A stretch of DNA of 64,000 nucleotides from Bacteroidota bacterium (GCA_016720935.1 JADKJP010000005.1:173216-237215); one strand, 5' to 3'; counted from the stretch's first letter, positions 13,901 through 62,408 are shown. Made by a program: numbers and translations. The notes: a model not told the origin generated them from the letters alone.

Positions 13901-16391
13901 CGTTTTTATCTGTGGCGATCATCGGAACACGCATGGATTCTCCACGTGTTGTATAATAATCACTGAGCTTCATTCCATAAAAAACATCCTGCGTGTAGAT
14001 ATTGAAATTTTTAACCCGATTCACCGGTCTTCCTGTTTCATCAAAGACTGTTGTGAAAACCTTTGTATTCAACAAGCCTTCATCGGTCCATTCTTCGTTT
14101 GCTTTAAAATATTCCGAAGCCAGTCCTTTTTCATCGGTTTTTCCTTCGCGAACGTCATTGGCGGAAAGTGGAACTTTATTTTCGGTATGAATATCAAAAG
14201 CGTACCCGGGAAAATCCTTCGCTACAAATTGTTTACGCTGTACCGTGAATTGCATTTCGTATTTTCTTCCGGCGGCGGGCGGGCCAAACAGGTTCACTGC
14301 CGCGAGATTCACTTTCAGACTATCGCCGGGTTTCAAATCTTCCTTGCTCATATTCACCTTCACATCAATCCTGTCGGGTAGAAATTCTTCTACACTGATG
14401 TATTCGGAAGTAAGCAATACATCATTGGATGTAAATACTTCCACGACATAATTCCCGGTAATTGCTGCTGCGGGCAATTCAAAAGAGGATTCCAGGGCTC
14501 CCTGCTGGTTCAATGTTCCACGGATACTTTTGAGTTCCCTTCCATTTGGCATGAGTACTGTAACACGTACAGGAACTTTGCTCACATTTTCCCATTGCTC
14601 TGTACGTACAATTGTATTCAGATGTATTGTTTCGCCCGGACGATAAATATCACGGTCTCCATACAGGAAAGCCATCATGCCTGTTTCGTCAGCACGACGT
14701 CCGCCAACATCATAGCGCGAGTTGTTTACACGCGAATCCGAGAAAGTGATGTAATTGAAATCATTATCAAATTTGGCGGTAACCATGCTCACTCTGAAAT
14801 CCGCACCTTTGGATTTGATTTTACTAAATGCCGCGACACCATCCGAATTGGTCGTGGCCGTCATCAGGGTTTGGTTGTTGGAGCTGATCAGGGCAATTGT
14901 CGCCCCTGACAAAGGTTCAGTCGTCTTGATTGAGTTGGCGAAAACTAGCATATCATCATCGCTTTGCTTTACAATCATTCCGATATCTGAAATGGACACC
15001 AGCTTGGTCGCATTCTGCCATTGTTTTTCCGATGAAGCAACACGAACAAGATAAATTCCCTTAAATGCTCCCAGATTGTCAAAATTCAGATTGAGCAGCT
15101 GTACACCATTTTGTCTTGCCAGATCCTTGGATTCATAAGTTCGCTGGTAGATTTCATTTCCGAAATAGTCAAGATCATAGGTGTTATACGTGTAGTCTCC
15201 ATTGGAATTGTATTCGCCCTCATCATCATACCAGTAATCCGTATTCCGGCCCTGACGTAAATAGTGGAGGATATTGTTTTCATACACTTTCCAAACCTTC
15301 ACCTCCACTTTAGGAATACTTGAAATTTGCAATGCGACATTCCGTGAACTTTTTGTGGAAAGATAAATTCCCTTTGTATTTACAAACGCGATTGTCGGTT
15401 CCATTTCGCCAAATGGAACCTGGACAGAATAATTTTTTTCCATGGTTCCACCAAGAGAACCTTTTAATTGATTGGAGATATCGAGCTGATAGGAAGTTCC
15501 TCCGGTGAAGACTCCTTTCAGGTAAAAACCATTCTCTGAAACTTCGACAACAAATGGAACTTTCGGATTCAGTTTGATGAACTGATCAATATTTTCCGGA
15601 TCAACTGATTGTGTAGTATAAACATGGATCATTCCCTGTGTTCCTTCGTATTCACTTAAAGCCTGGGTGATTTCCAGTTTCTCAGGTGAAGGAATGAGTG
15701 TCGCAATTTGGGTTTTCTCTTTTGTGAGAAACTCGCTTTCAACGCATTTTAGTCCTTTTTCAATTTCAACACGGAGCTGCACAACTCCAAGAGAATCGCG
15801 GTTGAAGCCATCCACTCTGGCTGTCAATGTAGATGAAACGGCACTGGTTATAATTTCATAAGCGACAGGTTTATTGTCGACAAGCAAGCTCATGAGTTTT
15901 GCTGTACTAGCCGGGTCCACAGGATAATTGAAGTCAAGAGTAAGTTTCAAAGCTGCCTGGCCGGGAATCTTTTCAGAGAGCGCCCAATACCCTTTCACTT
16001 CCTGCAATTTCAGGTAAGGTGTATGAAAAGAAAGAGGCTTACCGTTTTCCAGACGGTATTTCATGCGCGTGTAACGCAAAAGGTGATCCGATAATTCCGC
16101 GGAATAATCTGTCGAAGGACGAAAACCCACAGCAGGAGAAAACACAAGTTCACGAACGGTGTTCCATTTGAATTTTCCTTTCACTGCAGGTGAAAAGTTT
16201 ACATAGGGAATCGTGTCCCAGTTGTTGAGCAATGAATCAGGTACGAGATCTTTATCAAAAGTAAAAATCAGGTTTTGCTGTTGTTCTATTTCATCGCCAA
16301 AGTTGCGGTTTGCAATACGGATTTCATTCCGTGAAAAACAAGAAAACAAAAACAGGCCGAGCAGGCTGAGCAGGAAACGAGTGCGTTTCAT
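10965..16391 (-). CDS. Bacterial alpha-2-macroglobulin family protein (MG domains, thioester region 'GCIEQT')
   Basis: About 1800 aa with a signal/lipoprotein N-terminus ('LFLFSCF'), repeated MG2-like domains, a thioester-like 'YPYGCIEQTTS' and the A2M receptor-binding C-terminus. The start was trimmed to the ATG at 16391 (MKRTRFLL). Confidence 0.85.
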   Translation of the reverse strand: MKRTRFLLSLLGLFLFSCFSRNEIRIANRNFGDEIEQQQNLIFTFDKDLVPDSLLNNWDTIPYVNFSPAVKGKFKWNTVRELVFSPAVGFRPSTDYSAELSDHLLRYTRMKYRLENGKPLSFHTPYLKLQEVKGYWALSEKIPGQAALKLTLDFNYPVDPASTAKLMSLLVDNKPVAYEIITSAVSSTLTARVDGFNRDSLGVVQLRVEIEKGLKCVESEFLTKEKTQIATLIPSPEKLEITQALSEYEGTQGMIHVYTTQSVDPENIDQFIKLNPKVPFVVEVSENGFYLKGVFTGGTSYQLDISNQLKGSLGGTMEKNYSVQVPFGEMEPTIAFVNTKGIYLSTKSSRNVALQISSIPKVEVKVWKVYENNILHYLRQGRNTDYWYDDEGEYNSNGDYTYNTYDLDYFGNEIYQRTYESKDLARQNGVQLLNLNFDNLGAFKGIYLVRVASSEKQWQNATKLVSISDIGMIVKQSDDDMLVFANSIKTTEPLSGATIALISSNNQTLMTATTNSDGVAAFSKIKSKGADFRVSMVTAKFDNDFNYITFSDSRVNNSRYDVGGRRADETGMMAFLYGDRDIYRPGETIHLNTIVRTEQWENVSKVPVRVTVLMPNGRELKSIRGTLNQQGALESSFELPAAAITGNYVVEVFTSNDVLLTSEYISVEEFLPDRIDVKVNMSKEDLKPGDSLKVNLAAVNLFGPPAAGRKYEMQFTVQRKQFVAKDFPGYAFDIHTENKVPLSANDVREGKTDEKGLASEYFKANEEWTDEGLLNTKVFTTVFDETGRPVNRVKNFNIYTQDVFYGMKLSDYYTTRGESMRVPMIATDKNGKGIAAPVEIQVVKYDWYSVIEKDEYGGRYRYISKKREILQTQRTVNFAAGGYDFVYTPNESGEYEIRLSRPGSGRYVAVNFYSFGWGYTTNTSFQVNTEGQVDIQADKSKYTIGDKAHILFKAPFNGKLLVTIECDKVIEYRYLTTDKKAAVLDIPVKESYMPNVYITATLFRSLDDGSIPLTVGHGFLPLLVEKEGSRLPVTIVAEEKSRSKTKQTIKVKTLPKQDVEVTLAVVDEGILALKNYKTPDPHGFFYQKKALLVNAYDVYPNLLPDLKLNRSSSGGDGSGDFDMSKRVNPLNNKRVKLVALWSGILHTNAAGEAQYTIDIPQFSGDLRIMACVYKDKSFGSADKHMKVADPIVISPSMPRFLSPKDTLRMPVTITNTTGKQAEAIAKIQLNGPLKIVGESQQKVTINANAEQRVIFRIVADAAIGEAGIKVDVTAFNESFSDKTDITVRPVTSLIKISDSGELTGTQTIDLKNNFIPATASAKLVISQNPLVQFTRPLSYLISYPYGCIEQTTSTAFPQIYYADLVKNMKYGSMRDQNPSSNVQKAIHKLQGMQLYNGSLSYWPGGNDETWWGTNYAIHFLCESRKAGYEVNDLTIQRALAYMANKVKERSMYDDYGYYDERGGYKVRKIFAKENIYSLYLMALYGKADISSMNYFKSNAQDLCLDSRYMLACTYLALGDRKSFAALIPAAFQGEQSKRSFGGSFYSYLRDEAMVLNVLLDTDPENSQIPILVRHLSQQLNKDEWINTQEAAYSFLALGKFTRKISMIKANADVTMNGQSIGKFTGTELVLKKGIAGKSVTVSVEGNGHLYYFWEQEGLNAAGEVKEEDKFLSVRKTFLTRFGQPIASLKNIKQGDLIVVKLNLTNLERSNVENVVVTDMLPAGFEIENPRLNDSRDMSWIKDQSSPDYFDVRDDRIHFFTSVDKNERNFYYLVRAVTPGNFRMGPVSADAMYNGEYHSYSGSGIVDIR

Positions 16392-23826: not shown

Positions 23827-23829
23827 ATA

Positions 23830-23867
23830 GGGACGAGGGACGGGGGACGGGGGACGGGGGACGAAGG
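23830..23867. repeat. G-tract repeat: 5 tandem GGGACG-like units (GGGACGAGGGACGGGGGACGGGGGACGGGGGACG)
   Basis: Directly visible. The motif family is shared with 41985-42092 and with the 7294 terminator arm. Confidence 0.8.
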
Positions 23868-23927: not shown

Positions 23928-23967
23928 ATCACAATCTAAAATCACCAATCTAAAATCTAAAATCATT
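23928..23967. repeat. Word-stutter repeat 'AATCTAAAATC' x3
   Basis: 'atcacaatctaaaatcaccaatctaaaatctaaaatc'. Confidence 0.7.
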
Positions 23968-25285: not shown

Positions 25286-26998
25286 TTACTGTGTTTTTAA
25301 AACACGGAAACTTCTGTTTTTTCCCCGGCTGCTGATTTCAAGCAGATATATTCCTGCAGCCACATCGTCCAGTTCAAAATCGATTGTCCCGGATCCATTC
25401 ACAGTTTTTGTTAATTGAATTCTTCCCAGGTAATCGTAAAGCTTACAGAAAACTTCTCCATCTATCTTCTCCGAATAAGAAATCCGGATTTTCCCTGCTG
25501 TAGGATTTGGAGAAATCACTGCCTGTAAAGGAGCATGTGTCAATTCGATACCGGAAACAAAATATTCATACGCTCCGATATCCGGAGTACTTGGATCCCG
25601 TGGATTTCCATCTATATCCGAAGCAATCCAACTGATAGGTGTACCTTGATTATTTAAAACAGGATTGGTGGGAAGCAAAAACGATGGAGATGTAAACAGA
25701 GGTGCAATCGAAACACTGTTTGCATCCTGTGTACTGGCACTCTGCCAGTCGGCGAGAGTTTGATAGATTGTCGGATTCGTAGTGCCTTTGACCGCTACAT
25801 TCCCGGAAGGAACCCAGAAGTCATTGTAATTGCTTTGAAGCACGGTAGTCACTGTTGAAGTAGCGCCGAGTTTCAATGCCGCACGAGTACCAGTACCGGG
25901 TTTTGTAATGCTGATCAGGTTATTTTTCAAAACACTATTGGTATTCGAAAGTTCCTCACTGATACCGATGAAGTTTCCCGTAGCAGTAGCTGCATCGTCA
26001 CCGGAAATCACATTGAAACAAATTTCAGGAGCGGTCGCTGAAGTGCGGATTTCTATGCCGGTAAAATTTCCGGTAGTCAGCGCGCTTGCAGAAATCTCAT
26101 TATTAAAAACCCGGTGACCGGTTCCATTGAAAAGATAAATACCACGAAGGGTTTGTGTACCGTTGTTTTGCTGAAGGATATGAAATTTATTGTTCTCTAT
26201 GACCGCGTTAATATTCGCGTTTTGCGCGATCTGTATAGCATTCGCAGAAGAAATAATGTTGGCGATCTTTTCCAATAGATTTCCGGTGATATGAACGCCG
26301 TCAGTTTCACGGATATAAATTCCATTGTCAGCGAAATCAGCAATGTAGTTATTGGCTATTTCTATTTGAGTTGCAAGACTCGCCGCGTCGCCATATACTG
26401 AAATACCATAACCTCCGCTCGTAATATTATTTTCGGCAATTAAAATGTTGTCAAAATTTCCCGGGTCCAGAATGCTGGTTGTTGAACCGGAAGCGACAAT
26501 TCCTCCGTGCAAAGTGCTGGTTGAATTCATCAGGATGGTATTGTTCAGAATACTTAAATGACTTCCTGAATTATATATCTGGATTCCGTAAAAACCTCCG
26601 GTCGACGACGGATCATAAATAATACTCATTCCACGAATCGTCATCCAGGAAACATCTTCCAAACGAATAATGTGTCGATCCGTAGTTGTAGTTGCCGCTT
26701 GAAGGGTAGCTAGATTGCCTTCAATAGTAACTGTTGCTGTAGGACCTGCGCCCGGAATAGTATGAAAGGTCACTTGTTCTGTATAAGCAATGGAAGAATT
26801 TACATTGGCTACAACATCACCTGAAACTCCATCTGTACTCAGGCGCGTTGCAAAATCATTGAACGACTGGAAATTTGTTCCGGAAGTTGGAAGAGAACCA
26901 TCGATAGAATAAGCTCCGGATAAGGGTTGTGCCCGGCTAACCGTTGTCAAAATCAGCAGCATTGGAAGCGCTAGAAGAAGATAGAATTTTGTTTTCAT
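25286..26998 (-). CDS. T9SS-sorted secreted right-handed beta-helix protein (pectate-lyase-like fold), type-A CTD
   Basis: Signal peptide 'MKTKFYLLLALPMLLILTTVSRAQ', many 'N-x-I/G-I' parallel beta-helix repeats, and the C-terminal sorting domain '...GIYLLEISSRGKNRSFRVLKTQ'. The start was trimmed to the ATG at 26998. Confidence 0.65.
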   Translation of the reverse strand: MKTKFYLLLALPMLLILTTVSRAQPLSGAYSIDGSLPTSGTNFQSFNDFATRLSTDGVSGDVVANVNSSIAYTEQVTFHTIPGAGPTATVTIEGNLATLQAATTTTDRHIIRLEDVSWMTIRGMSIIYDPSSTGGFYGIQIYNSGSHLSILNNTILMNSTSTLHGGIVASGSTTSILDPGNFDNILIAENNITSGGYGISVYGDAASLATQIEIANNYIADFADNGIYIRETDGVHITGNLLEKIANIISSANAIQIAQNANINAVIENNKFHILQQNNGTQTLRGIYLFNGTGHRVFNNEISASALTTGNFTGIEIRTSATAPEICFNVISGDDAATATGNFIGISEELSNTNSVLKNNLISITKPGTGTRAALKLGATSTVTTVLQSNYNDFWVPSGNVAVKGTTNPTIYQTLADWQSASTQDANSVSIAPLFTSPSFLLPTNPVLNNQGTPISWIASDIDGNPRDPSTPDIGAYEYFVSGIELTHAPLQAVISPNPTAGKIRISYSEKIDGEVFCKLYDYLGRIQLTKTVNGSGTIDFELDDVAAGIYLLEISSRGKNRSFRVLKTQ

Positions 26999-27194
26999 AA
27001 TGGCTAAGATGTATTCCAAAGGTAAAAAATTCATGACTGAAATAATGTTTTGAATTAATCCCTCTCACATCTATTTCCCGGTTCTCTCAGAGAGTTTTCT
27101 CAGATGTTAAAGGCATTATCGGTCCATTTCTTCATATTTCCTGTACTCCTTCACATTCACAAATTATACTAAATTTGCTCCTCAATTTTAAAGT

Positions 27195-28184
27195 ATGTCC
27201 AAAATCACTGCAGCTATTACCGCTATTGGCGGCTACGTTCCGGACTATGTACTCACCAATGCTGAATTGGAAAAGATGGTGGATACTACCGACGAGTGGA
27301 TCACCTCACGCACTGGAATTAAGGAAAGAAGAATATTGAAAGGTGAGGGCCTTGGCACTTCAGACCTTGCTGCTCCGGCCGTTAAAGAAATGCTCCGGAA
27401 AAGAGGAATCGATGCTTCTGAAATTGAATTGTTGATTTGTGCCACTACCACTCCTGATTTCGTTTTCCCTGCTACGGCGAATATTGTTTGCGACAAGATC
27501 GGAGCAAAAAACGCTTTCGGTTATGATATTTCCGCCGCTTGTTCAGGATTCCTGTATGCGCTTGTAACCGGTTCCAAGTTTATTGAATCAGGCCAATACA
27601 AAAAAGTTGTTGTTGTAGGTGCGGACAAGATGTCAAGCATCGTCGACTACACAGATCGCACAACCTGTGTACTTTTTGGTGATGGCGCAGGTGCCGTTTT
27701 ACTTGAACCGAATACGGAAGGATTTGGTATACGGGATTCAATTCTTCGCAGTGACGGATCCGGACGAGTATACCTTCATCAAAAAGCCGGAGGTTCTGTG
27801 AAGCCACCGTCCCATAAAACCATTGACGCAAAAGAACACTACGTTTTCCAGGATGGTCAGCCGGTTTTCAAAGCGGCTGTGACAAGCATGGCTGATGTCT
27901 CCGCAGAAATAATGGAGAAAAATAATCTGAAAGCGGAAGATGTTGCATGGTTGGTTCCGCATCAGGCCAACAAACGTATCATTGATGCGACTGCAAGAAG
28001 AATGGGTGTCGGCCCTGAAAAAGTCATGCTGAATATTGAGAAATACGGAAATACAACCAGCGGTACCATTCCGCTTTGTCTGGTTGATTACGAGAAACAA
28101 TTAAATAAAGGAGACAACCTTATCCTTGCGGCCTTCGGCGGAGGATTTACCTGGGGGAGTGTTTGGGTGAAGTGGGGAGTTTAA
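27195..28184 (+). CDS. fabH: 3-oxoacyl-ACP synthase III
   Basis: Active-site 'AACSGF', 'HQAN' and 'GNTTSGT' (Cys-His-Asn triad). Confidence 0.95.
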
Positions 28185-28380
28185 TTTGGTTTCGGGTTCT
28201 GAGTTCCGGGTTCCGGGTTTGAGGTTTGAGGTTTGAAATTTTTTTTTGGTTCGAAGTTTTTTGGGGTTGAGGTTCAGTTATTTTTTTCTGATTTGATTGG
28301 TTGGAGATAGCAGCGACATATTTCAAATCAAGTCCTGGTACTTGGTACCTGGTACCCAAATCCCAAATCCCAATAAAATC
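28185..28380. repeat. Intergenic word-stutter / G-tract repeat block
   Basis: 'gggttctgagttccgggttccgggtttgaggtttgaggtttg' ... 'ggtacttggtacctggtacccaaatcccaaatccc'. It shares a roughly 22-nt core with 50478-50500. Confidence 0.75.
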
Positions 28381-28692
28381 ATTTCCCTCCATTAATACCA
28401 CCTTTTCGCCTTTTATCTTTTCAATAATCAATCTTTAGTTGTCATTTTACTGATTTATTAATCATTTAACTATCATTATTTTAATAATCTCCTTTAATTT
28501 TCAGCTTAAAATTATCCAGCTTTTTAGTGGTTTTTCGGCAGGTATTTTTGCCTCTTTTTGGAATTTAACGTAGGTTTGAATTCCTTTCCCCGATTCCAAC
28601 CATCGGGAAATGGAATGGGTACTCAACCACCACACATGAAGCAGAAAAAAACTCCGGCTACTAAGCCTCAACCACAACCCAGCGTAGAATCT

Positions 28693-29252: not shown

Positions 29253-30593
29253 ATGTTTAAAAAGATATTGATCGCCAATCGTGGCGAGATTGCACTCCGC
29301 ATTATCCGTACCTGTAAGGAAATGGGCATCAGTACGGTTGCAGTATACAGTACAGCCGACAGGGAAAGTTTGCATGTTCGTTTCGCGGATGAAGCGGTGT
29401 GCATTGGCCCGCCACCGAGTCGTGATTCTTATCTCAATATCCCGAGAATAATGGCCGCAGCGGAAATTACCAATGCGGATGCCATCCATCCGGGCTATGG
29501 TTTTCTCTCTGAGAATTCCAAGTTCAGCGCGATTTGTGCCGAGCACGGAGTGAAATTTATCGGAGCCACTCCTGATCAGATCGATCAGATGGGAGATAAA
29601 TCAAATGCAAAGGAGACAATGAAAAAAGCCGGTGTCCCTACTATTCCGGGAAGCGACGGACTACTTTCTGATCTCAAAACAGGATTGAAAATCGCCAAAC
29701 AAATCGGTTACCCGATTATCCTGAAAGCTACTGCCGGTGGTGGTGGCCGCGGGATGCGTATCGTTTGGAAACCGGAAGATTTTGAAGCAGCCTGGGAATC
29801 CGCACGCCAGGAAGCCGGTGCCGCATTTGGTAACGACGGAATGTATCTCGAAAAATACATCGAAGAACCACGTCATATCGAAATACAAATTGCAGGTGAC
29901 CAATATGGAAAAGCTTGTCACCTCAGTGAGCGTGACTGTTCAATTCAACGTCGTCACCAAAAACTGATGGAAGAAACTCCTTCACCTTTCATGACTCCTG
30001 AGTTGCGGGAAAAAATGGGTGAAGCCGCTATCGCCGCCGCACTCGCTGTGAAATACGAAGGTGTTGGTACGGTAGAATTCCTCGTCGACAAACACCGCAA
30101 TTTCTATTTCATGGAAATGAATACGCGGATTCAGGTAGAACATCCGATCACGGAAGAAGTCATCAACTACGATCTGATCAAGGAGCAAATAAAAATCGCG
30201 GCGGGAATTCCAATCACCGGAAAAAATTACTTCCCGAATCTCCATGCGATCGAATGCCGCATCAACGCGGAAGATCCATACAATAATTTCCGTCCATCTC
30301 CCGGCAAAATCACCACACTGCACGTTCCAGGCGGACATGGTGTACGTGTTGACTCACACATTTACGCGGGCTATGTGATTCCTTCCAATTACGATTCCAT
30401 GATCGCGAAACTGATCACTGTCGCACAAACGCGCGAAGAAGCGATCAATACCATGGAACGCGCGCTAAGCGAATTTGTCGTTGAAGGCGTAAAAACAACG
30501 ATCCCTTTTCACCAGCAACTGATGCGTAACGAAGATTTCCGCAATGGAAATTATACGACGAAGTTTTTGGAGACGTTTAAACTTGAAGAATAG
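29253..30593 (+). CDS. accC: Acetyl-CoA carboxylase biotin carboxylase subunit
   Basis: '[11 protein letters not shown]', an ATP-grasp domain and '[14 protein letters not shown]'. 446 aa. Confidence 0.95.
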
Positions 30594-30730
30594 GTTCTGG
30601 GCTTCGAGTTTTAGGTATTAGTTTTTTTATTGGGAAAATGGGCATTAAAATGTTAACAGCATTTTATTGAAGCGCCAGCTCCCAAGCACTAACCACTAAA
30701 CACTAACCACCAACCACCAACCACCAACAA
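30594..30730. repeat. Intergenic word-stutter repeat block
   Basis: 'ggttctgggcttcgagttttagg' ... 'ctaaccactaaacactaaccaccaaccaccaaccaccaacaac'. Confidence 0.7.
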
Positions 30731-32584
30731 CTAATACCCCTGATACTCCCTATAAATCTCCTGAATAAAAGCCTGTCCGCGGTGGAGTGATTGTTTCAGG
30801 AGTGTGCTATCGGGATTCGGGCTTTGGAGAATGAGGTCTTTTCGATTGTACGAATACACGAGCCAGTTTTTTTCTTCGATCCAGCCCAGAACATGTTCCA
30901 TCTGGAAATAAGCGAAGTTTGTTGCTTCAGGAGCCATTAAATTTTTACTCCAGTGAAATTCACTTGCATCCAGACCGAGTTGCGGTAAAAGTGTAGCAGG
31001 TAAATCCTGATGTCCTCCCAGTTTGGTGATCTGGATTCCACGATACTCTGGTTTGATGGGTTCACCAAACAAGAGCATCGGAATATGCCGACTATTTGGA
31101 TACAAATCATTCCGGTGTTTCGGTAACAAATGCCCGTGATCGGCAACGAGGACGAAGAGTGTATTCGCGTACCAGGATTCTTTTTTCGCTTTCCTGAAAA
31201 ACTCGCCGATACACGCGTCTGTATATGCAGCGGAGTTTCTGAATTTATTCGCTTCATCATTTCCGGGAAAACGTACCGGTCCGGGTACATCAAAAGGCTC
31301 GTGATTGCTCAGCGTCATGGTCACCGAGAAAAAAGGTTGTTTCACATGGGAGAGATCGCTCAATTGTTTGTTGAACACATGTTCATCAAAGATTCCCCAT
31401 TTTCCTGAAGGAGTAGCTTTGTCAAAATCCTGTTGCTCGAGGATGACATCAAAACCCTGATTGATGCAATAGACATTGAGATTTGAGAAATTACTTTCTC
31501 CTCCGTAATAAAATGAAGTTGTATAACCGTTCTTTTCGAAAACTTTTGGCAGCGAAGGAAGTCTGACCGATTTCTCAGATGAACGCATGATCGAATGATA
31601 CGGAGTTGCCGGCCATCCGTTCAATACTGATACAATACCCTGATCCGTTCGCGCTCCGCTGGAATAAATATTGGAAAAGGAAACACCTTCGCTCATCAGT
31701 TGTTCGATCACCGGAGAAATTCCAGATTCTCCACCCAAAGAAGCGACAACATCAGCAGTATGACTTTCGAGAATGAAAATGACAATATTGGGATGTTCGA
31801 CAGAAAGTATTTTTGGAAATGAATCTGCATTTGAACGATACAAATTTTTAAGAATTTCCTCCGCTTCTTTTTCGGGCATTGTTTCGAAAGGATTTTCATC
31901 CGTGAGTCCGGCTGCACGAACATCATATGCGAGATGCCAGACCGGATTGATCGCGACCTGGTTGAGGAATTGTTTTTTGGAATAATACACAAGGCTTTCA
32001 TTCATCGGCAACATTTGCCATCCTCCACGGATACCGAGGATAAGCAATCCCGCCATCCCGACGAGAAATATCGCCTTTTTTGCCGGCAGATTTTTGACCT
32101 GTCCTTCAAGATCCACATTGTTTAATTTCCGGAGAATGAAAATTTGCAATCCCAACAAAAGCGCGATTGTAAGTAGCACCAGGACCAATTGCAATGTGCT
32201 TAGTGATACAAATATTTCTTTGGGATCGGAGAGATAAGTCAACGCTCTGTAATTAATCAGGCTACCCCAAAAATGAAAAAGCAAGATGTTGCCGATACAA
32301 ATTAAAGTCAGCAGCACAGCGATGATTAGATGATATACAAAGCTGATCTTTTTGAAAACTGTATTTCGAAAAGGAAAGAGACAAAACAAAACCGGAAGAA
32401 CCAGCAGATATGAAAGTACTGAGAGGTCCATCCTGGCTCCGTGAAGGAATCCCGGAAGAATTTCCGTTAGCGCCAATTCACCCTGGTTTCTTTGATTGAA
32501 AATAAAAAAGCAAAATCTCCAGAATGCAAAAAGGATCACATAATAACATGTGATCCTTAGAATATATTGAAGTTGTTTATTCAC
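30731..32584 (-). CDS. LTA-synthase family membrane protein (alkaline-phosphatase/sulfatase superfamily; phosphoglycerol- or phosphoethanolamine-transferase-like)
   Basis: Five N-terminal TM helices, then a sulfatase-type domain ('ILESHTADV', 'LVADHG'). Confidence 0.7.
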   Translation of the reverse strand: MNKQLQYILRITCYYVILFAFWRFCFFIFNQRNQGELALTEILPGFLHGARMDLSVLSYLLVLPVLFCLFPFRNTVFKKISFVYHLIIAVLLTLICIGNILLFHFWGSLINYRALTYLSDPKEIFVSLSTLQLVLVLLTIALLLGLQIFILRKLNNVDLEGQVKNLPAKKAIFLVGMAGLLILGIRGGWQMLPMNESLVYYSKKQFLNQVAINPVWHLAYDVRAAGLTDENPFETMPEKEAEEILKNLYRSNADSFPKILSVEHPNIVIFILESHTADVVASLGGESGISPVIEQLMSEGVSFSNIYSSGARTDQGIVSVLNGWPATPYHSIMRSSEKSVRLPSLPKVFEKNGYTTSFYYGGESNFSNLNVYCINQGFDVILEQQDFDKATPSGKWGIFDEHVFNKQLSDLSHVKQPFFSVTMTLSNHEPFDVPGPVRFPGNDEANKFRNSAAYTDACIGEFFRKAKKESWYANTLFVLVADHGHLLPKHRNDLYPNSRHIPMLLFGEPIKPEYRGIQITKLGGHQDLPATLLPQLGLDASEFHWSKNLMAPEATNFAYFQMEHVLGWIEEKNWLVYSYNRKDLILQSPNPDSTLLKQSLHRGQAFIQEIYREYQGY

Positions 32585-32612: not shown

Positions 32613-34973
32613 TTATTCTTTGACTAATCGAGTCTTTTGAATTTCCAAACCGTTCTCCAAAGTTACGAAATAGACTCCTTTGATAAAGGAATCCAGGCTA
32701 ATTGGAAGACGATTTACTCCTTCGTGGAGATCAACCTTCTTTGACAATACAACCTGCCCCTGTGAATTAAAAATCTGCACTACGGCTGTGCCTTCAGTTT
32801 CAGTACTGAATACAACATCCATATTGTCCTTCGCAGGATTGGGTTGAACAATGAAGATATTTGATTTGGATTCAAAGCGAACCGGAACAATTTCAGAATA
32901 ACTGAATTTTCCGTCATAATCTGTTTGTTTCAATCGGTAATAGGACAACCCTTTTGAAGGTTCACCATCAATCGTTGAATAAACTTTTGTTTGGGTACTA
33001 TTACCGGCTCCATCTACCATTCCGATGGCCTGGAAATCGATTCCATTTTTGCTGCGCTCAATAGTGAAATAGTCATTGTTTGTTTCTGTCGCGGTTGTCC
33101 AGCTGAGTTTCACCATGCTGTTATCCGGTTTCGCGCTGAAGCTCAACAATTCTATTGGCAATGGTGTTACAGAACAATCGAGTGAAGCGCCATTGGTGAG
33201 GAGCCAGTTCAAGGAGAAACCGCTACCACCGGGACTCCATTTACTTACTACGAGTTGATAGGTTTCCCCTGTAGTCACTCCCAGTTCATTTGTCCAGCCA
33301 TTACCACAGGCATCTTCGCTATTATCGGATCCGCTGTTGTTCACTCCGCAGGCATTTGTATTTGTACTCAAATTAGACGCAGAGTTCATCCCGGTATTTG
33401 GAAAGGCTGCCCAATTGCCGGCATAGGAACAACGAATCGGGGATCCAAGTGAACCACAAGTTGGGTTTGGTCCAAAGAGCGCGAAGTCATAATCATCAGC
33501 AGTGGTATTCGGTGCGATTGTGAATCCTAATTTACCTCCGGATTGAATTTTGATGGTATACCAGTTGGTATAATTTTCTGTTGGTACACATGCACCGGAG
33601 AGGTCTGATGACAAACCAGGACCGGTACTTGCATCCGTAATTGCCTGGTTACTACAAATACCTGTTGAATTGGCGCAGTCACTATTGTCTGTACCATTCG
33701 GTCCTGCTGCATATGGAACACAATCGAAAGTTGCGACCCATCCTGCACGATTCGTGCTTGAATTGGAATTAAAACGAACTGTGATACATCCGCTTTGATC
33801 AGTAGAAATATACGGACCGAGACCAACAGACATACAAGCCTGGTAAGTGTTCACCGGTCCGCCAAACCATGCCGACCCCCCGTTAAATTGAGGGCTATTT
33901 TGAGTTGCACCGTTTAGAATTTCCAGATAATCATTCGGAATGCCAAAGGTGGTAGTGTTATCAGTATAAAAAGACCAGAACTGCATGCGCAATGCTGTGC
34001 CGGGTTGATCCGGACAGAAGGTACGATAGATTCCATTTACATTGTTCGAATAGTTTCCGCCGGTTCCGCCATCATCGGTAAATGTACCGGAACAAGTATT
34101 AACCATATTGGAACCAACATACGTTCCCAACATTCCCGTTGTTGGCGCAGTATAGGTTGCCACACCTGCCGGTGCTGTCGGACATGGAACACAGGAAATA
34201 ATCGCGCTCCAACCTGCTCGCGTAGTACTGGCATCTGATTTAAAACGAAAGGTAAGACAACCGGTGGTAGAAATAATTGTCGGAGGCAATGTTGTTCCAC
34301 TGTACACTCCGATTCGTGTAGCAGCTGTAGATGCTCCATCAAAAATTGTCAGCGAATCTCTGCCTGCTTGAGTATTGAATGACGTAAATACAAACATGAG
34401 ACAGTTTCCTGAGTTTGAACAGAACGTTTCTACTAAAGTCTGGTTATTTGCATAAGTTCCACCGGAACCTCCCGAATCAAAAAAGAGGCCGGAACAAGTA
34501 TTCACCGTGAGACCATTGGTCATGTTGTAATTCCCACTGCAGGAAACACAGGAAAGTGTTACAGCCCATCCGCTGCGTGTATTACTTCCATTGGAAACAA
34601 ATTTGAATGTGAGACAACCACTGGAAGAAGTCAGAGCCGGCGGCAGCGTACTTCCTGAAAAAGTTCCCAATACTGGATAAGTATTATTAGGTCCGTCGTA
34701 AACGGTAAGGATATCATTTCCGCCTTGTGTTCTGAAGGCTGTGAAAGTCGCTACTATGCATGTAGATGCATTGGAACAAAAGCTTATGGTGTAATTCTCG
34801 TTGTTCGCATAATTACCTCCGGAACCTCCGGAATCATAAAACGTACCTCCGCAGGTGCTCACAGTAGTATTGTTGGATGCCGCGTTTAGAAGATAGGTCT
34901 GAGCATTTGTTGTTCCGGTGAACACCAATAACAATACAGAACAGATCAATAAATTGTAAAATAACTTTTTCAT
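32613..34973 (-). CDS. T9SS-sorted secreted protein with about 4 tandem CUB-like domains and a type-A CTD
   Basis: Signal peptide. Repeated roughly 110-aa units 'TCSGxFxDsGGsGGxYaNN...fCSN...CL...F.sF.Tq.G.D.LtiyDG.......G.ysGt..PP...SssGCLTF.F.SD.S..r.GW.A.isC' with CUB-like spacing. C-terminal '...KGVYFVTLENGLEIQKTRLVKE'. Confidence 0.6.
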   Translation of the reverse strand: MKKLFYNLLICSVLLLVFTGTTNAQTYLLNAASNNTTVSTCGGTFYDSGGSGGNYANNENYTISFCSNASTCIVATFTAFRTQGGNDILTVYDGPNNTYPVLGTFSGSTLPPALTSSSGCLTFKFVSNGSNTRSGWAVTLSCVSCSGNYNMTNGLTVNTCSGLFFDSGGSGGTYANNQTLVETFCSNSGNCLMFVFTSFNTQAGRDSLTIFDGASTAATRIGVYSGTTLPPTIISTTGCLTFRFKSDASTTRAGWSAIISCVPCPTAPAGVATYTAPTTGMLGTYVGSNMVNTCSGTFTDDGGTGGNYSNNVNGIYRTFCPDQPGTALRMQFWSFYTDNTTTFGIPNDYLEILNGATQNSPQFNGGSAWFGGPVNTYQACMSVGLGPYISTDQSGCITVRFNSNSSTNRAGWVATFDCVPYAAGPNGTDNSDCANSTGICSNQAITDASTGPGLSSDLSGACVPTENYTNWYTIKIQSGGKLGFTIAPNTTADDYDFALFGPNPTCGSLGSPIRCSYAGNWAAFPNTGMNSASNLSTNTNACGVNNSGSDNSEDACGNGWTNELGVTTGETYQLVVSKWSPGGSGFSLNWLLTNGASLDCSVTPLPIELLSFSAKPDNSMVKLSWTTATETNNDYFTIERSKNGIDFQAIGMVDGAGNSTQTKVYSTIDGEPSKGLSYYRLKQTDYDGKFSYSEIVPVRFESKSNIFIVQPNPAKDNMDVVFSTETEGTAVVQIFNSQGQVVLSKKVDLHEGVNRLPISLDSFIKGVYFVTLENGLEIQKTRLVKE

Positions 34974-35355
34974 TGGCCTTCAATCTTTAGAATAAACACA
35001 GATCTCTTTTGGGGCATGAAGAGAGTTCTTTGCTTATTCTTTTTTAGTTAAAAGGCTTGAATTAGTTGAGATGAAATGAAGCAAAATCCTACATCAGTGA
35101 CTAGGATTCTATCTTGTCAATTTCTTGAAAAACATCTCATTTTTCACAAACAGATGGTACAAAGATGGAAATGAATGGACAAAAACGATGGATTCTCTTC
35201 ATTTTTGTGTTTCTGTTTTTATACCGCTCATCCTTCATTTTTCGAAATTGGTTAAGCGGCATAACCAATTCTAATGCAGGTTATTCGTCTATTATTTTCG
35301 GAAACCTGAATAAGATTGGTATACAAGTCTTTTAACTGGTAGAGTTTACACATTT

Positions 35356-35514
35356 AAAATCCCGAAGGGATGAAATTATTATAGAACATACAGTTTCGCG
35401 TCATTCCAAAAGCCCGAAGGGCTGACATGTTCACCGAAGTCATGTCAGCCCTTCGGGCTTTTGGATTCAAGGAGTTTGCTTTTTTCTATAATAATTTCAT
35501 CCCTTCGGGATTTT
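35356..35514. mobile_element. MITE-like structured element: perfect 29-bp terminal inverted repeats enclosing a perfect 24-bp-stem hairpin
   Basis: Terminal inverted repeats 'AAAATCCCGAAGGGATGAAATTATTATAG' at 35356-35384 and its exact reverse complement at 35486-35514. Internal hairpin 'CCAAAAGCCCGAAGGGCTGACATG' at 35406-35429 and its exact complement at 35441-35464, with an 11-nt loop. Confidence 0.6.
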
Positions 35515-35884
35515 CGAAAAATGGAAATCCGGATGATTCAGTCCTTTTTGCCTTATTAGTAAAAAGGCCTTTCAACATGAGGACTCCTATGTGAACGGGA
35601 GGTTTTTTTGAATTTTGAATCGATCATTTTTTTTCACCAATCAACAACAAAATCAATGCACGTTTTGAATAAGAAAAAATATTTAGTAGCGAAAAAATTA
35701 GCAATCTAACCCCGGGCGTAGCGAGGTTACGAGCGAAGCACGGGAAAGGCGGAATTGAAGTGTAAAAAAATATCGTTCCAAAAAACCTTATCATTCTTTG
35801 CTTCAACAGCGCTAAATATTTTTCTCAAACTGCGTGATGTTTTAAATCTCTCCATGCATCACACATCCAAGAGTACCATCAATC

Positions 35885-38218
35885 TCAGTGATGCACCAAC
35901 CTAGAAACACGATGGCTCTGATTGTCATCCAATATAACTATGTATACTCCCTTTGGTAAACCGGAAATATCAATCTGTGTTTTGTTCATTCCCGGATTGG
36001 CGATGACTGTTTCTTTGAGACAAGAAATTCCTTCAGTACTTAGAATCTGCAGATTGTAATTGGTCCGTTCACCGGAACTAAAGATCAATGACACTTCATT
36101 ACCGGCAGGGTTTGGTTGCAAATAAAAAATGTCATTCTTCTCGCTGAAGTCAACCGGGACTTTTTCGGAGTACGAGAATTTACCGTCAAAATCAGTTTGC
36201 TTCAATCGATAATATGAGATGCCCTGGAATGGTTTTTCATCCACCGTTTCGTAGTTCTTCACCACAGTAGTTGTTCCGGCACCATCTACCATTTGAACTG
36301 GTTCAAAATCTGTTCCGTCAGCGCTTCTTTCGGTGGTAAAATACTGGTTGTTGATTTCTGAAGCAGTAGTCCAGTTCAGCCTGACAATTTTTGATTCGGC
36401 ATTCGCCTGGAAAGAAATCAATTCGACAGGAAGCACACTGCAATTCAGTGATGCGCCTCCGGTGAGTGTCCAGTCGAGTGTAAACCCGCTACCTCCCGGA
36501 GACCATTTGTTCACGAGCAAATAAAAATTCTGGCCGACACTTACTGCCATTTCGTTCACCCAGCCATTTCCGCAAACATCTTCCGATACATCCGAGCCGT
36601 TGTTTGGTAGTCCGCAAATAGCGGTATTTGTTGCCAAATTGTTCGCGTTATTCATTCCGGTATTTCCGGTGTTGGAAGCATAAGAACAACGAACAGGAGC
36701 TCCGAGTGCTCCGCAGCTGTTGCTTTGATACATCGCGAAATCATAATCATCTGCACCGACATTCGGTACAATTGTCAACCCAAGATTTCCTCCTGTACTC
36801 ACAGTAATTTTATACCAGTTGCTGAAATTTTCACTGAGGACACATCCGTTTCCTCCATCGGAAATAATTCCCGGTCCTGTACTTGCATCGGAAAAACTCT
36901 GATCCGTACAAACCGGAGATCCAATCAGGCAATCACTGTTGTCTGTACCATTCGGACCATTCGCGCAGGGAACACAATCAAACGTGGTGACCCAACCCGA
37001 ACTGACCACACTAGCATCAGAGAAGAATTCAAATGTCAGACAGCCACTTTGATCCGTAGAGGTGTAAGGTCCGATTCCTGCACCCATACAGGCTGAGTAT
37101 GTTGTGAGTGGTCCGCCCCACCAGGCTCCAAGAATTGGACTTCCCTGAGTCGGGCCATTTCTGATGGCGAGGTAATCGATTCCGAGTTCAGTTCCAAAAG
37201 AATAAAATTGCGCACGCAAACATTTGCCTGCCTGATTCGGACAAAATGTTCGGTAATAACCCTGGTCACTGAACAAACTACTTGTTCCAATATTGTTGGA
37301 ATAATTTCCGGCAATACCACCATTGTCGGTATAAGTTCCGCCACAGGTGTTCACCATATTATTTCCAACATAGGTATTTTGCAAACCAACTGTCGGGTGA
37401 GTATAGGTTGCTGTACCTGCAGGCGCGCTCGGACAAATTTCACAGGTGATAATCGCCTGCCAGCCGGCATCGACAAGATTTGCATTGGATGTAAAGTTCA
37501 CAGTCAGACAACCTGAGGACGACAACATGGTGGGAGGCAAAGTTGTTCCTGAATAAGTTCCAATCAGTGGTGATGCGACACTGTTACCATTGTATACTGT
37601 GAGGTTATCACCGGTACGTAATGCAAAAGACGTAAACTGAATTTGCAAGCAAGATCCCGGTGTGGAAGAGCAAAATGTTTTTGTGAAATTCTGGTTGTTC
37701 GCGTAATTGGCTGCGCTTCCACCGCCATCGAAAAACAATCCTCCGCAGGTATTCACTGCAGTATTGTTATTCATCAGGTAGCTGGTACCACATGCACCAC
37801 AGGAAATAGTCGCGGCCCAACCGGAGCGAACGGTGCTTCCGTTTGAAACAAAATTAAATGTCAGACAACCGCTTGAAGCGGTGATCGAACCGGGAGATGT
37901 TGTTCCTGAAAAAACACCTATCACCGGCGATGCCGTAGTTGGTCCGTCGTAAATCGTGAGCAAATCATTTCCTCCCTGAGTACGGAATGCGGTGAAATTT
38001 ACCGTCAAACAGTTTCCGGCATTGGAGCAAAACGATTGTGTGATATTGGTATTGTTGGCATAATTTCCTGCTGCACCACCCGGATCATAAAATGTCCCGC
38101 TACATGTATTAATGGTACCATTCGCCATGTTGTATGTCTGAGCATACAAATGGGAATCAGCGAAGATTGCCAGTAATATAAAGATCAACACGACCTTTAG
38201 AGTATGAGGGTAACTCAT
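35885..38218 (-). CDS. T9SS-sorted secreted protein with tandem CUB-like domains (paralog of 32613-34973)
   Basis: Same architecture and repeat consensus as the neighbouring gene. C-terminal CTD '...KGVYIVILDDNQSHRVSRLVHH'. Confidence 0.6.
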   Translation of the reverse strand: MSYPHTLKVVLIFILLAIFADSHLYAQTYNMANGTINTCSGTFYDPGGAAGNYANNTNITQSFCSNAGNCLTVNFTAFRTQGGNDLLTIYDGPTTASPVIGVFSGTTSPGSITASSGCLTFNFVSNGSTVRSGWAATISCGACGTSYLMNNNTAVNTCGGLFFDGGGSAANYANNQNFTKTFCSSTPGSCLQIQFTSFALRTGDNLTVYNGNSVASPLIGTYSGTTLPPTMLSSSGCLTVNFTSNANLVDAGWQAIITCEICPSAPAGTATYTHPTVGLQNTYVGNNMVNTCGGTYTDNGGIAGNYSNNIGTSSLFSDQGYYRTFCPNQAGKCLRAQFYSFGTELGIDYLAIRNGPTQGSPILGAWWGGPLTTYSACMGAGIGPYTSTDQSGCLTFEFFSDASVVSSGWVTTFDCVPCANGPNGTDNSDCLIGSPVCTDQSFSDASTGPGIISDGGNGCVLSENFSNWYKITVSTGGNLGLTIVPNVGADDYDFAMYQSNSCGALGAPVRCSYASNTGNTGMNNANNLATNTAICGLPNNGSDVSEDVCGNGWVNEMAVSVGQNFYLLVNKWSPGGSGFTLDWTLTGGASLNCSVLPVELISFQANAESKIVRLNWTTASEINNQYFTTERSADGTDFEPVQMVDGAGTTTVVKNYETVDEKPFQGISYYRLKQTDFDGKFSYSEKVPVDFSEKNDIFYLQPNPAGNEVSLIFSSGERTNYNLQILSTEGISCLKETVIANPGMNKTQIDISGLPKGVYIVILDDNQSHRVSRLVHH

Positions 38219-40595: not shown

Positions 40596-41978
40596 ATGAA
40601 ACCAATTCGGGTAATTGATCTGCTTCGTTCAAAAGAAACCGGGAAACCGACGGAAGTAAAAGGCTGGGTGCGCACCAAACGTGGCAACAAGCAAATCGCC
40701 TTCATCGCGGTGAATGATGGCTCTGTTATCCATTCAATCCAGGTGGTTGCTGAGTTGGCTAAGTTCGACGAAGAACTGATGAAGCAAATCACTACAGGAG
40801 CATGTGTTCATGTAAAAGGAACACTTGTCGCTTCTCAGGGAAGTGGTCAGGCTGTAGAAATTCAGGCTACTGAAATTATTTTGCTGGGTGGAGCGGATGA
40901 AACTTTTCCGTTGCAAAAGAAAGGTCATTCGATGGAGTTCCTTCGCGAGATCGCGCATTTGCGTCCACGTACAAATACGTTCGGTGCCGTCCTGCGCATG
41001 CGTCATCACATGGCTTTCGCGATCCATAAGTATTTTAACGATCGAGGATTTTTCTATTTGCATTCACCTGTGATTACCGGTTCAGATGCAGAAGGTGCAG
41101 GAGAAATGTTTCAGGTCACAACATTGGATCTGAACAATCCTCCACGCACAGAAGACGGATCAATTAATTTCAAAGAAGATTTTTTTGGTAAGGCAACCAA
41201 TCTCACTGTATCCGGACAACTCGAAGGAGAACTGGCGGCGATGGCATTGGGTAATGTGTACACCTTTGGTCCTACTTTCCGTGCGGAAAATTCAAACACA
41301 CCACGACATCTCGCGGAGTTCTGGATGATAGAACCTGAAATGGCTTTCTACGATATCCAGGATAACATGGATCTCGCTGAAGATTTTCTGAAATACCTCA
41401 TCCAATATGCTTTGGATAATTGCAAAGACGATCTGGAATTCCTCAACAATATGTACGATAAGGAACTTGTTGGTCGTTTGCAATTTGTTGTTTCGAATCC
41501 TTTCGAAAGATTGACTTATACAAAAGCGGTTGAGATCCTGATGAATTCCGGAAAAAAATTCGAGTTCCCGGTGAACTGGGGAACGGATTTACAAAAGGAA
41601 CATGAAAATTTTCTCGTTGAACATTTCAAGAGGCCGGTGATTCTTACGGATTATCCAAAAGAAATCAAGGCATTCTACATGAAGCAAAACGACGATGGTA
41701 AAACAGTTCGCGCGATGGATGTATTGTTTCCGTGGATTGGTGAAATCATCGGAGGTTCGCAACGTGAGGAGAATTATGAAAAGCTCATGTCACGCATTAC
41801 TGAAATGCACATTCCTGAAAAAGATTTGTGGTGGTATCTCGATACGCGTAAATACGGCGCATGTGAGCATTCCGGTTTTGGATTAGGCTTCGAACGCCTG
41901 ATGCTTTTTGTGACCGGGATGACAAATATTCGGGATGTGATTCCGTTTCCGCGGACACCGAAGAACGCGGAATTTTGA
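40596..41978 (+). CDS. asnS: Asparagine--tRNA ligase
   Basis: 460 aa with an N-terminal OB fold. Class IIb motifs '[21 protein letters not shown]' and 'GGSQREE'. It lacks the AspS insertion domain. Confidence 0.9.
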
Positions 41979-41984
41979 TTACAG

Positions 41985-42092
41985 AGGGACGGGGGACGAG
42001 GGCTCCTCTTCCCTTTTCCTAAAAGCTGAATTTTAATTGGAGGGACGAGAGGCGGGGGACGTCACTCGTCCCTCGCCCCTCGTCCCTTTTCC
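41985..42092. repeat. G-tract repeat / duplicated terminator module (GGGACG family) serving as a bidirectional terminator
   Basis: 'gggacgggggacgagggctcctcttcccttttcctaaaa...' and then a second copy 'ggagggacgagaggcgggggacgtcactcgtccctcgcccctcgtcccttttcctaaaa'. The second copy is a near-perfect roughly 20-bp palindrome followed by TTTT. Confidence 0.7.
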
Positions 42093-42604
42093 TAAAATTT
42101 GAATCGGACAGTCAATCCCATATCCAGCCATTCCGGGCCGGGGTTTAACAATCCATAGTATGGATTTACATCTATGCCTACCGTTACAGGTACGCGGCGG
42201 GAATTGTATTCGAGTCCGAATTGCGCGTCAATGCCGGCATTGAGAGCATTGTGATCGTAGTATTCTGGTTCACCGTCAACGATGTGGTAATAATTTTCTT
42301 TGAACAATCCGAAGTGTCCGCCAACACCAAATACCATATCCACAGGAATCTGAAGTTTGGAATTGAAAATCGGCACTTGTTTCACAAAGAATGCTTTTCC
42401 CATATAACCGGTATTGGCTTCACGGGTAATTGTTCCCCATATTTCAAAGCCGACATTTCCGCGTGCGTCAAAGAAATGTTTAAGGCTCGCACCGGTCGCG
42501 AATTTTCCAACTCTTGCACCGAAGCTCGTCGTGTAATCCGCTTTCGCGTTGGGTACTGAGTAAATAGTAATTACCAAAAAAAGAATCGAAAAGATCTTTT
42601 TCAT
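42092..42604 (-). CDS. Small outer-membrane beta-barrel protein, signal peptide
   Basis: 'MKKIFSILFLVITIYSVPNAKA', about eight predicted strands, and a C-terminal 'LTVRFKF'. Confidence 0.5.
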   Translation of the reverse strand: MKKIFSILFLVITIYSVPNAKADYTTSFGARVGKFATGASLKHFFDARGNVGFEIWGTITREANTGYMGKAFFVKQVPIFNSKLQIPVDMVFGVGGHFGLFKENYYHIVDGEPEYYDHNALNAGIDAQFGLEYNSRRVPVTVGIDVNPYYGLLNPGPEWLDMGLTVRFKF

Positions 42605-46664: not shown

Positions 46665-46713
46665 TTGTTTGATTTGAGGGCAATGCAACAATTTAAACCT
46701 TGAACATCGAACA

Positions 46714-49249: not shown

Positions 49250-49480
49250 ATTGATTCGGTGGAACTTTGAATTATGAATTATGAATTTGTGTCTAAGAGT
49301 GAAAGGGGAAGTCTTTAATAATATTTCAAAGGGAGCTGAAATCGTGATCGAATATACAGCTCAAAATATTCTTGACAGTACGCTCATTCACAATTCTAAA
49401 TTCTTAATTCTTAATTGAAATGTAGCTGCTCAATTAGCACTTACAATACGCTCATTCATAATTCTCAATTCTCAATGAAA
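49250..49480. repeat. Intergenic word-stutter repeat block
   Basis: 'gaattatgaattatgaatt', 'aattcttaattcttaatt' and 'aattctcaattctcaat'. Confidence 0.65.
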
Positions 49481-50457: not shown

Positions 50458-50640
50458 AAGTAAGGAATTCTTGTCAATTTGAGTTCCGGGTTCTGAGTTC
50501 CGGGTTCCGAGTTTTGATGGTTGCTGGAAAGAATGAGCTAATCAATAATACTTCTATAGCATCCTTATACCTTATACCTAATACCTGATACCAAAATGGG
50601 TGTGAGTGCGGGTGTGAGTGTGCCATTGAAAAAAATTCAG
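50458..50640. repeat. Intergenic word-stutter / G-tract repeat block
   Basis: 'gagttccgggttctgagttccgggttccgagttttg' ... 'ccttataccttatacctaatacctgatacc' ... 'gggtgtgagtgcgggtgtgagtgtg'. Confidence 0.75.

Positions 50641-60112: not shown

Positions 60113-62408
<2,296 letters not shown>

Follow-up and report, generated by a model that had tools for sequence, protein, structure and literature searches.

The spacer downstream of fabH in an uncultured Bacteroidota genome is built of short tandem repeats with a unit of seven nucleotides, and such arrays recur between the genes around it. The window analysed is a stretch of 64,000 nucleotides (GCA_016720935.1, JADKJP010000005.1:173216-237215), and all positions are counted from its first letter. 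We have found that the arrays originate, become homogenised, expand and contract in place by one 7-nt unit per step, that they are tolerated almost solely in intergenic DNA, and that they persist at given gene ends while their unit sequence turns over among close relatives. They also have a fixed polarity, as arrays abutting stop codons are G-rich and C-poor, and arrays near start codons C-rich and G-poor, on the mRNA-sense strand. The arrays are a further member of a known repeat class, that of the STRR and GGGNATC repeats, and are not REP-like mobile elements. We consider it probable that they are heptanucleotide simple-sequence repeats which change by slippage, are for the most part near-neutral, pass a polarity filter acting at the level of the transcript, and have in some cases been co-opted.

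Tandem Repeats Finder (TRF) detected about 16 short arrays in seven spacers between 23.8 and 50.7 kb, with lengths of 17-48 nt and copy numbers of 2.4-6.9. The "stuttering" blocks described in the original prediction are therefore real period-7 arrays, and the strings quoted there were found, except that GGGttccGGGttccGGG is not literally present and the actual sequence is GGGTTCTGAGTTCCGGGTTCCGGGTTTG. The 7-nt period that unites the blocks was absent from that description, and two sites (41984-42087 and 46702-46720) are additional to the blocks it named. The spacer 3' of fabH (stop codon 28182-28184) reads GGGTTCT GAGTTCC GGGTTCC GGGTTTG AGGTTTG AGGTTTG followed by a T9 run, and about 100 nt beyond this run it reads CCTGGTA CTTGGTA CCTGGTA CC CAAATCC CAAATCC C. 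On the plus strand this is resolved into GGGTTCY/GAGTTCC x4.6 (28188-28219; TRF unit GGTTCCG), which lies 3-11 nt past the fabH stop and holds a 22-nt core at 28194-28215, GGTTTGA x3 (28216-28236), with the T9 run directly after it, CCTGGTA x3.3 (28334-28356), in which GGTACC recurs, and CCCAAAT x2.7 (28355-28373), which opens a long G-poor leader before accB. In a close relative, contig L127, CCTGGTA is kept as four units and CCCAAAT is present as a single copy. Directly 3' of the accC stop a degenerate remnant (GGTTCTG GGCTTCG AGTTTT, +) was found as predicted, at 30593-30612 and not at 30597-30618. The same spacer region carries an array that reads CACTAAC/CACCAAC x6.9 on the plus strand (30687-30734) and belongs to the minus strand, where its sense is the G/T-rich GGTTGGT/GTTAGTG and it abuts the stop of a sulfatase gene.

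Upstream of these, GGGACGN x5.1 (23829-23864, +; TRF unit AGGGACG) begins 2 nt past the stop of a YceD-family gene, is G-rich in sense and contains the sole canonical G4 motif in the window, and AATCTAA x4.6 (23933-23964, +), which has no G, ends 19 nt 5' of the rpmF start codon. A unit of the GGGACGN family recurs as GAGGGAC x2.7 (41984-42002, +), 5 nt past the stop of a class-II aminoacyl-tRNA synthetase gene (40596-41978), where it pairs with a pyrimidine run 3' of it in a small hairpin. Next to it, inverted GGGACGN and NCGTCCC arrays (42040-42087; TRF 42060-42087), with no strand assigned, form a hairpin of about 22 bp followed by TTTT between convergent genes. On the minus strand, GAACATC x2.7 (46702-46720, sense GATGTTC) overlaps the stop codon of gene 46714-47748, and TGAATTA x2.9 (49268-49287, sense AATTCAT, G-poor) lies 24 nt upstream of the start of gene 47762-49243. 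AATTCTT x3.6 (49392-49416, -) falls within one copy of a 34-nt duplication (49375-49408 and 49443-49476), and AATTCTC x2.4 (49460-49476, -; sense GAGAATT, no C) lies 6 nt past the stop of gene 49483-50433, also on the minus strand. The divergent promoter region that follows holds GAGTTCC/GGGTTCY x4.7 (50481-50513, +), with a second exact copy of the 22-nt core at 50488-50509; this array is 47 nt upstream of a minus-strand gene start and is C-rich on the sense strand of that gene. The G-poor CCTTATA/CCTAATA x4.3 (50563-50592, +) lies upstream of a plus-strand gene, and the CCTTATA family also occurs upstream of accB in another relative, contig L130. The sole block with a period of 12 instead of 7 is GGGTGTGAGTGC x1.9 (50598-50620, +).

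It is the 7-nt register that unites the arrays. In a scan with uniform scoring, period 7 yielded 12 arrays, against 0.23 per shuffle in second-order Markov shuffles, and each other period from 4 to 15 yielded none or one, the one being of period 9. The same peak was seen in 843 kb of unrelated genomes around the genome matches, where 256 arrays had period 7 and no period other than the multiples of 7 had more than 22. The original prediction had stressed G-tracts, which some blocks do carry, but about half of the units lack them (AATCTAA, AATTCTT, CCTTATA, CACTAAC), so that the G-tract cannot be the shared feature. More than ten unrelated unit sequences are found inside 27 kb. Two unit families, GGGTTCY/GAGTTCC and GGGACGN, recur at separate loci, the GGGACGN blocks at four sites, in agreement with the earlier view of a dispersed class tied to gene ends instead of random low complexity.

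Array bases account for 326 of 8,464 intergenic nucleotides and 13 of 51,636 coding nucleotides in the 60 kb scanned, which makes them about 150 times denser between genes than within them. Moreover, about 9-10 of 15 arrays are located no more than 20 nt from a gene boundary, where random placement in the same spacers would give about five. The arrays thus show what defines the heptanucleotide SSR or STRR-like class: the units are 7 nt long and joined head to tail, the arrays are many, dispersed and concentrated in non-coding DNA across these 60 kb, and unit number varies at the same locus between strains and relatives. A search of positions 1-60150 against Rfam 15 at the gathering score matched no spacer, its sole match being tRNA-Met at 1986-2059.

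The FabH protein of the window is encoded identically on JADKHU010000005.1 (MAG GCA_016721635.1) and on several metagenome contigs from wastewater; the MAG locus matches the window at 99.84% identity along 21 kb. Among named sequences, the closest FabH homologue (91%) is that of Candidatus Pollutiaquabacter (Bacteroidia, Ca. Pollutiaquabacterales), and genes nearby encode CHU_C domains and type-IX-secretion tails. The arrays thus belong to an uncultured Bacteroidia lineage, the Candidatus Pollutiaquabacterales, from activated sludge; its genome had been called AT-rich, and the GC content is 42%. As the arrays are found in independent assemblies, they are not assembly artefacts.

Comparison with these relatives revealed how the arrays change. 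Strain L002, which shares 98.6% identity with the window over 4.7 kb, is short of precisely one 7-nt unit in the GGGACGN array after the YceD-family gene. Between the convergent genes for a 170-aa protein and the aminoacyl-tRNA synthetase, most strains have one inverted-GGGACGN hairpin in a 64-nt spacer; the hairpin is duplicated in the window and in contig L193, and those two differ from one another by a 7-nt indel in the array at 42060 and by a 17-nt indel. Downstream of accC, GGGTTYC is repeated four to five times in L189 and L127, and the remnant in the window is about 20 nt, or about three units, shorter. Downstream of fabH, L127 (97% FabH identity) has GGGTTCC x2 and GGTTAGA x6 where the window has GGGTTCY x4 and GGTTTGA x3. 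Each GGTTTGA unit of the window corresponds to GGTTAGA in L127, a sign of concerted change. In L130 (89% FabH identity) the same position is occupied by GGGACGN x4. The variation in place by 7-nt steps, together with the different units at the same gene ends in close relatives, points to slippage and not to transposition. Six further contigs of the species showed no variation in the length of the fabH spacer, and the arrays are therefore not hypermutable on short time scales. In the more distant relatives L133 and L134 the spacers are compact, and 21 kb of each held no array of period 7. Array-poor relatives include GCA_046052345.1 and GCA_003389315.1. Relative to these two contigs, the window has a type-IX-secretion-tail gene (25286-27034, -) inserted between plsX and fabH.

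A different kind of repeat was encountered in Ca. Pollutiaquabacter sp. GCA_016713765.1 (contig L129), in which clusters of true palindromes with arms of about 38 nt, and not heptamer arrays, lie directly 3' of fabH. Their units are 82-94 nt long, with arms CACTGCTCACTCACACTGTTTCTTAGTCT... and ...AGAAACAGTGTGAGTGAGCAGTG inverted, and they occupy three spacers (11006-11390, 12480-12945 and 14934-15177 of that contig). These clusters are a genuine REP/BIME-like family. The palindrome arm has no match in the window, and a link between this family and the period-12 block at 50598 was considered and is unsupported, as the arm pattern is unmatched in the window at up to three mismatches.

The orientation of the arrays relative to genes was also found to be regular. 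Arrays after stop codons start 0-11 nt beyond the stop. G exceeded C in nine of nine stop-flanking 40-mers from array-bearing spacers (G 125, C 50), against 10 of 23 from spacers without arrays, which have no skew (G 164, C 186); the hypergeometric p is about 0.003, with the reservation that some stop-adjacent arrays are orthologous and hence not independent, the independent gene ends in the window numbering eight. Arrays near starts had C above G on the sense strand in eight of eight cases, and so did 23 of the 30 array-free leaders. Since G-poor leaders are the norm in this lineage, only the post-stop half of the polarity is specific to the arrays. In other phyla and in viruses, 40 arrays within 35 nt after a stop were G-rich in sense and eight C-rich, in a test that drew on six independent locus sets and four different G-rich units, relied on crude ORF calls, and set aside many arrays inside long ORFs of GC-rich genomes. 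This is the polarity of the repeats described by Rehm et al. in 2015, which are G-rich in sense after stops and antisense before starts (PMC4692102), and its recurrence with unrelated units and, crudely, across phyla indicates that the rule is a property of the repeat class as a whole, not of a single motif.

Much less regularity was seen in structure. G-quadruplexes had been proposed as a shared property of the repeats, and the prediction that was run bears this out for one array only: 23830-23864 fits G3+N1-7 x4 with a G4Hunter score of 1.62, and the focal arrays at 28188-28236 score below 1.2. A G4Hunter signal at 28150-28196 comes mostly from the coding end of fabH. The last 40 nt or so of that coding sequence (28143-28184, CTGGGGGAGTGTTTGGGTGAAGTGGGGAG) are G-rich with a score of 1.6, which means that the G-rich stretch starts inside the gene, ahead of the array. 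A G4 would be expected for (GGGACGG)4-5 only, and not for GGGTTCTGAGTTCCGGGTTCCGGGTTTGAGG or for a C-free A/T-rich array. RNA folding energies, expressed as z scores against shuffles, ranged from -0.04 to -1.3 across the arrays, with a value of +2.45 after accC (post-fabH -0.92, GGGACGN -0.04, sulfatase side +0.31), so that the arrays fold no better than shuffled sequence. The L127 array after accC, in which UCCGGG junctions between GGGTTCC units can self-pair, reached -2.1. Pairing between the left and right arrays of a spacer was rejected, as the units of the two do not complement each other and they fold just as shuffles do. The exception is 41976-42100, with -67.3 kcal/mol over 125 nt and z scores of -6.5 (+) and -6.0 (-). 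The inverted-GGGACGN hairpin within it is kept in all strains examined, and by its modelled fold 42040-42087 looks like a bidirectional terminator-like structure between the convergent genes.

The repeats had further been said to sit where terminators are expected. Eight arrays do lie directly after stops; others lie upstream of starts, and 42040-42087 is the only one that resembles a terminator. No hairpin followed by a U-run was found in the focal region 28185-28380, and a consensus scan for terminators and promoters made no call at the focal arrays and gave totals that did not exceed those of shuffles. Some 40 nt 5' of accB there is a small hairpin with a T-run (28537-28552, GGCAGGTATTTTTGCC TCTTTTT) followed by TAGGTTTG (to 28577), which we take to be a match to the Bacteroidota -7 promoter motif TAnnTTTG. 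Both the hairpin and TAGGTTTG are conserved in L127 and L130. This hairpin and promoter box would place the heptamer arrays in a 3' UTR of about 350 nt or in an untranscribed gap after fabH, and the hairpin may be the real fabH terminator.

Taken as simple-sequence repeats, the arrays would most likely owe their origin to replication or repair, in which strands slip and mispair in a 7-nt register, a slippage directly visible in the 7-nt indels. Their polarity would reflect a filter at the transcript level, of which the pre-start half mirrors the G-poor leaders of the lineage and the post-stop half is particular to the arrays. Most arrays would then probably be near-neutral by-products, and co-option may have occurred where arrays of the same unit came to lie head to head between convergent genes and could form a bidirectional terminator stem, of which 42040-42087 is a clear case. 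This explanation has its difficulties. Slippage alone accounts neither for the sharp 7-nt peak nor for the close association with stop codons, and the strict G-rich sense after stops, which is absent from the background composition, hints at a function or at a mechanism coupled to transcription.

That hint is taken up by a reading which we regard as possible yet on balance unlikely, namely that the G-rich arrays after stops are dedicated 3'-UTR elements which cause pausing or termination without a hairpin, or which block 3'-5' exonucleases or Rho loading with an action like that of REP elements in E. coli. The candidate means of pausing or termination would be G4s, R-loops, or G·U helices with downstream U-runs, formed on the RNA or on the non-template DNA. 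The orientation of the post-stop arrays, uniform in the window against an unskewed background and prevalent across phyla, is what such elements should show, as is their start within a few nucleotides of the stop. Some array has been kept after fabH and accC in three diverged genomes despite sequence change, T-runs follow several arrays (28237-28249; 4778-4800 in L127), the UCCGGG junctions of L127 can self-pair, and in L129 the position after fabH is held by true palindromic elements. Set against this, most arrays fold like shuffles, one array alone is G4-competent by standard criteria, a simple terminator scan is silent at the arrays, and the conserved hairpin and T-run 350 nt further on (28537-28577) may itself terminate fabH. 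In addition, L133 and L134 do without arrays, and the accC array of the window has decayed with no visible replacement. About as unlikely is the broader proposal that post-stop G-rich arrays form a widespread class of functional 3'-end elements independent of exact sequence. If it were true, position and polarity would be what is selected while the unit sequence drifts, in the Bacteroidota, Xanthomonas, cyanobacteria, Planctomycetota, Acidobacteriota and phages, and the roles would be pausing or termination without a hairpin, a shield from exonucleases or Rho, or a supply of raw material for bidirectional terminators.

The 22-nt core on which the original prediction was centred proved to be neither special nor genome-specific. 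Its two exact copies (28194-28215 and 50488-50509, both +; none in 100 shuffles) do confirm that it recurs, about 10 nt downstream of the location given before (50478-50500), and the similarity extends to 30 of 32 nt (28189-28220 and 50483-50514). That the same order of three units, 22-32 nt in all, is reused at two loci 22 kb apart points to some transfer between arrays and to growth that was not fully independent; together with the GGGACGN blocks at four sites, this suggests some exchange within the genome or a lineage-specific vocabulary of units. The claim of genome specificity does not survive the finding of the exact 22-mer in 51 metagenome contigs that range in GC content from 0.44 to 0.70, have unrelated flanks and in several cases carry inverted partner arrays. 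Arrays of GRGTTCY x3 were found at more than 120 genome loci among the matches listed, in the Planctomycetota, Acidobacteriota, Gemmatimonadota, Verrucomicrobiota, Bacteroidota, Cyanobacteria and others. The explanation that the core is an element conserved across phyla was rejected, because in viral contigs the real unit was found at 47 loci and permuted heptamers of the same composition at 57 and 49 (GGGACGN x3 at 55). Heptamer arrays of any sequence are thus common in bacteria, and the identity across phyla is convergence. A literature search by unit sequence found nothing relevant.

In another organism (Ga0070739 / Ga0209810, GC about 0.52-0.56) the core is embedded in a dispersed element that is longer and conserved, ...TTCTTTGACATTTGAATCGGATGCGCGCCAAC-GGTTCC-core-GGTTGGGGATTTTGCTATCCTCTATCCTC, with a second heptamer array (CTATCCT) downstream. 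More than 12 copies were seen, on contigs L138, L139, L144, L150, L151, L155, L160, L161, L165, L168, L179 and L183-L185.

The result with permuted heptamers, which are as common as the real ones, as a mutational process predicts, also bears on the suggestion, made by analogy, that the arrays serve in post-transcriptional control as platforms for a single-strand nucleic-acid-binding protein, for instance an OB-fold protein of the cold-shock or S1 type, each monomer of which would occupy about 7 nt. A period that holds regardless of unit sequence, arrays that are unstructured and hence accessible as single strands, and a location near start and stop codons would all suit such a protein, and the heptamer binding register of CspB has been discussed in this context (PMC4679880). 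A sequence-specific reader is nevertheless difficult to reconcile with more than ten unit sequences in 27 kb that are swapped at orthologous sites, and we consider a binding platform improbable. The original interpretation, a genome-specific REP/BIME-like or miniature mobile family spreading by transposition, could draw on the 30 of 32 nt common to two loci, on GGGACGN at four sites and on the longer dispersed element of the Ga0070739 organism, but it is hardly tenable for head-to-tail direct repeats that lack palindromes, terminal inverted repeats and flank similarity past the array, that vary in place in 7-nt steps, that share their core with organisms of widely differing GC content in unrelated flanks and no more often than control heptamers, and that look quite different from the real REP-like palindromes of L129.

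REP and BIME elements of the Enterobacteria and Pseudomonas are imperfect palindromes of about 35 nt that are mobilised by RAYT transposases. The arrays resemble them in being short, dispersed, extragenic and often located just 3' of stops, and the hairpin formed by the 42040-42087 pair could act in transcription termination or in mRNA stabilisation. Unlike REP elements, they are direct 7-nt tandem repeats that change by unit slippage, and the focal arrays form no palindrome of about 35 nt with a stable stem-loop (z -0.92, no inverted partner); it is because of this missing palindrome that the REP/BIME reading fails its defining test. The SSRs of contingency loci in Haemophilus and Neisseria usually have units of 1-5 nt, sometimes 7, and lie in the ORFs or promoter spacers of surface-structure genes. 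They share with the arrays a unit number that changes between strains by slippage, but the arrays flank housekeeping genes (fabH, accC, rpmF, aminoacyl-tRNA synthetase) and the fabH spacer is invariant in the six further contigs of the species.

The simple-sequence repeat reading is in better accord with the heptamer repeats known from other bacteria. Rehm et al. described G-rich heptamers, GGGAATC and GGGGA(C/T)T, in Xanthomonas and Nostoc, and reported that the position of these GGGNATC repeats is conserved while their length and sequence vary (PMC4692102). The arrays of the window have the same 7-nt unit, strong intergenic bias and polarity, as well as occasional inverted pairs capable of forming a stem-loop. 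They differ in having many unit families, half of them without G-tracts, and a Bacteroidota host; the four or more G3+ tracts and the preference for four units that mark the Rehm repeats were not found, as one of about 16 arrays is G4-competent and copy numbers range from 2.4 to 6.9. As far as they are described in PMC4679880 and PMC4692102, the STRR of heterocystous cyanobacteria and the heptanucleotide "long SSR" class of Mrazek et al. (2007) likewise consist of several heptamer families dispersed in non-coding DNA, with period 7 dominant among units of 5-11 nt and polymerase slippage as the proposed origin; compared with the STRR of these accounts, the arrays belong to a different lineage, have other unit sequences and are short (17-48 nt). 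In 2015 MacGregor reported TAACTGA direct repeats in marine Beggiatoaceae, cyanobacteria and five Bacteroidetes, and proposed a role in post-transcriptional control for those of the Beggiatoaceae (PMC4679880). Like our arrays, these are intergenic, with 2-6 units located a few to tens of nucleotides before starts in forward orientation, and they are as G-poor as the pre-start arrays described here; in Gramella and Aequorivita other heptamer repeats share spacers with them (PMC4679880). One unit dominates per genome there and many are found here, TAACTGA is absent from the arrays of the window, and a post-stop G-rich class is prominent in our case.

To the organisms rich in heptamer repeats, a class known for 35 years, the present arrays add the Ca. 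Pollutiaquabacterales, uncultured and abundant in the environment, whose co-occurring strains show continuing variation in 7-nt steps. For the purpose of annotation, the blocks are best labelled simple repeats, and not mobile elements, G4 regulators or terminators.

Other features of the window were noted in passing. At 60105-62405, between the 3' end of recO and an LPG_synthase_TM gene, about 2.3 kb consist almost wholly of homopolymer runs of G and of C (GC 0.91), one of them a C-run of about 1 kb. In four other assemblies of the strain, GCA_016721635.1 among them, the two genes are adjacent and the block is missing, which has the look of an artefact of sequencing or assembly, or of an insertion that only this copy carries. 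A 911-nt spacer (34974-35884) holds a palindromic element of about 159 nt (35356-35514) with nested perfect inverted repeats and CCCGAAGGG motifs, in which the outer arms (31 nt) and inner arms (25 nt) are each 100% identical and enclose a loop of 11 nt. The genes on either side of this spacer (32613-34973 and 35885-38218) are CUB/Por_Secre_tail paralogues with common internal repeats at a spacing of 357 nt.
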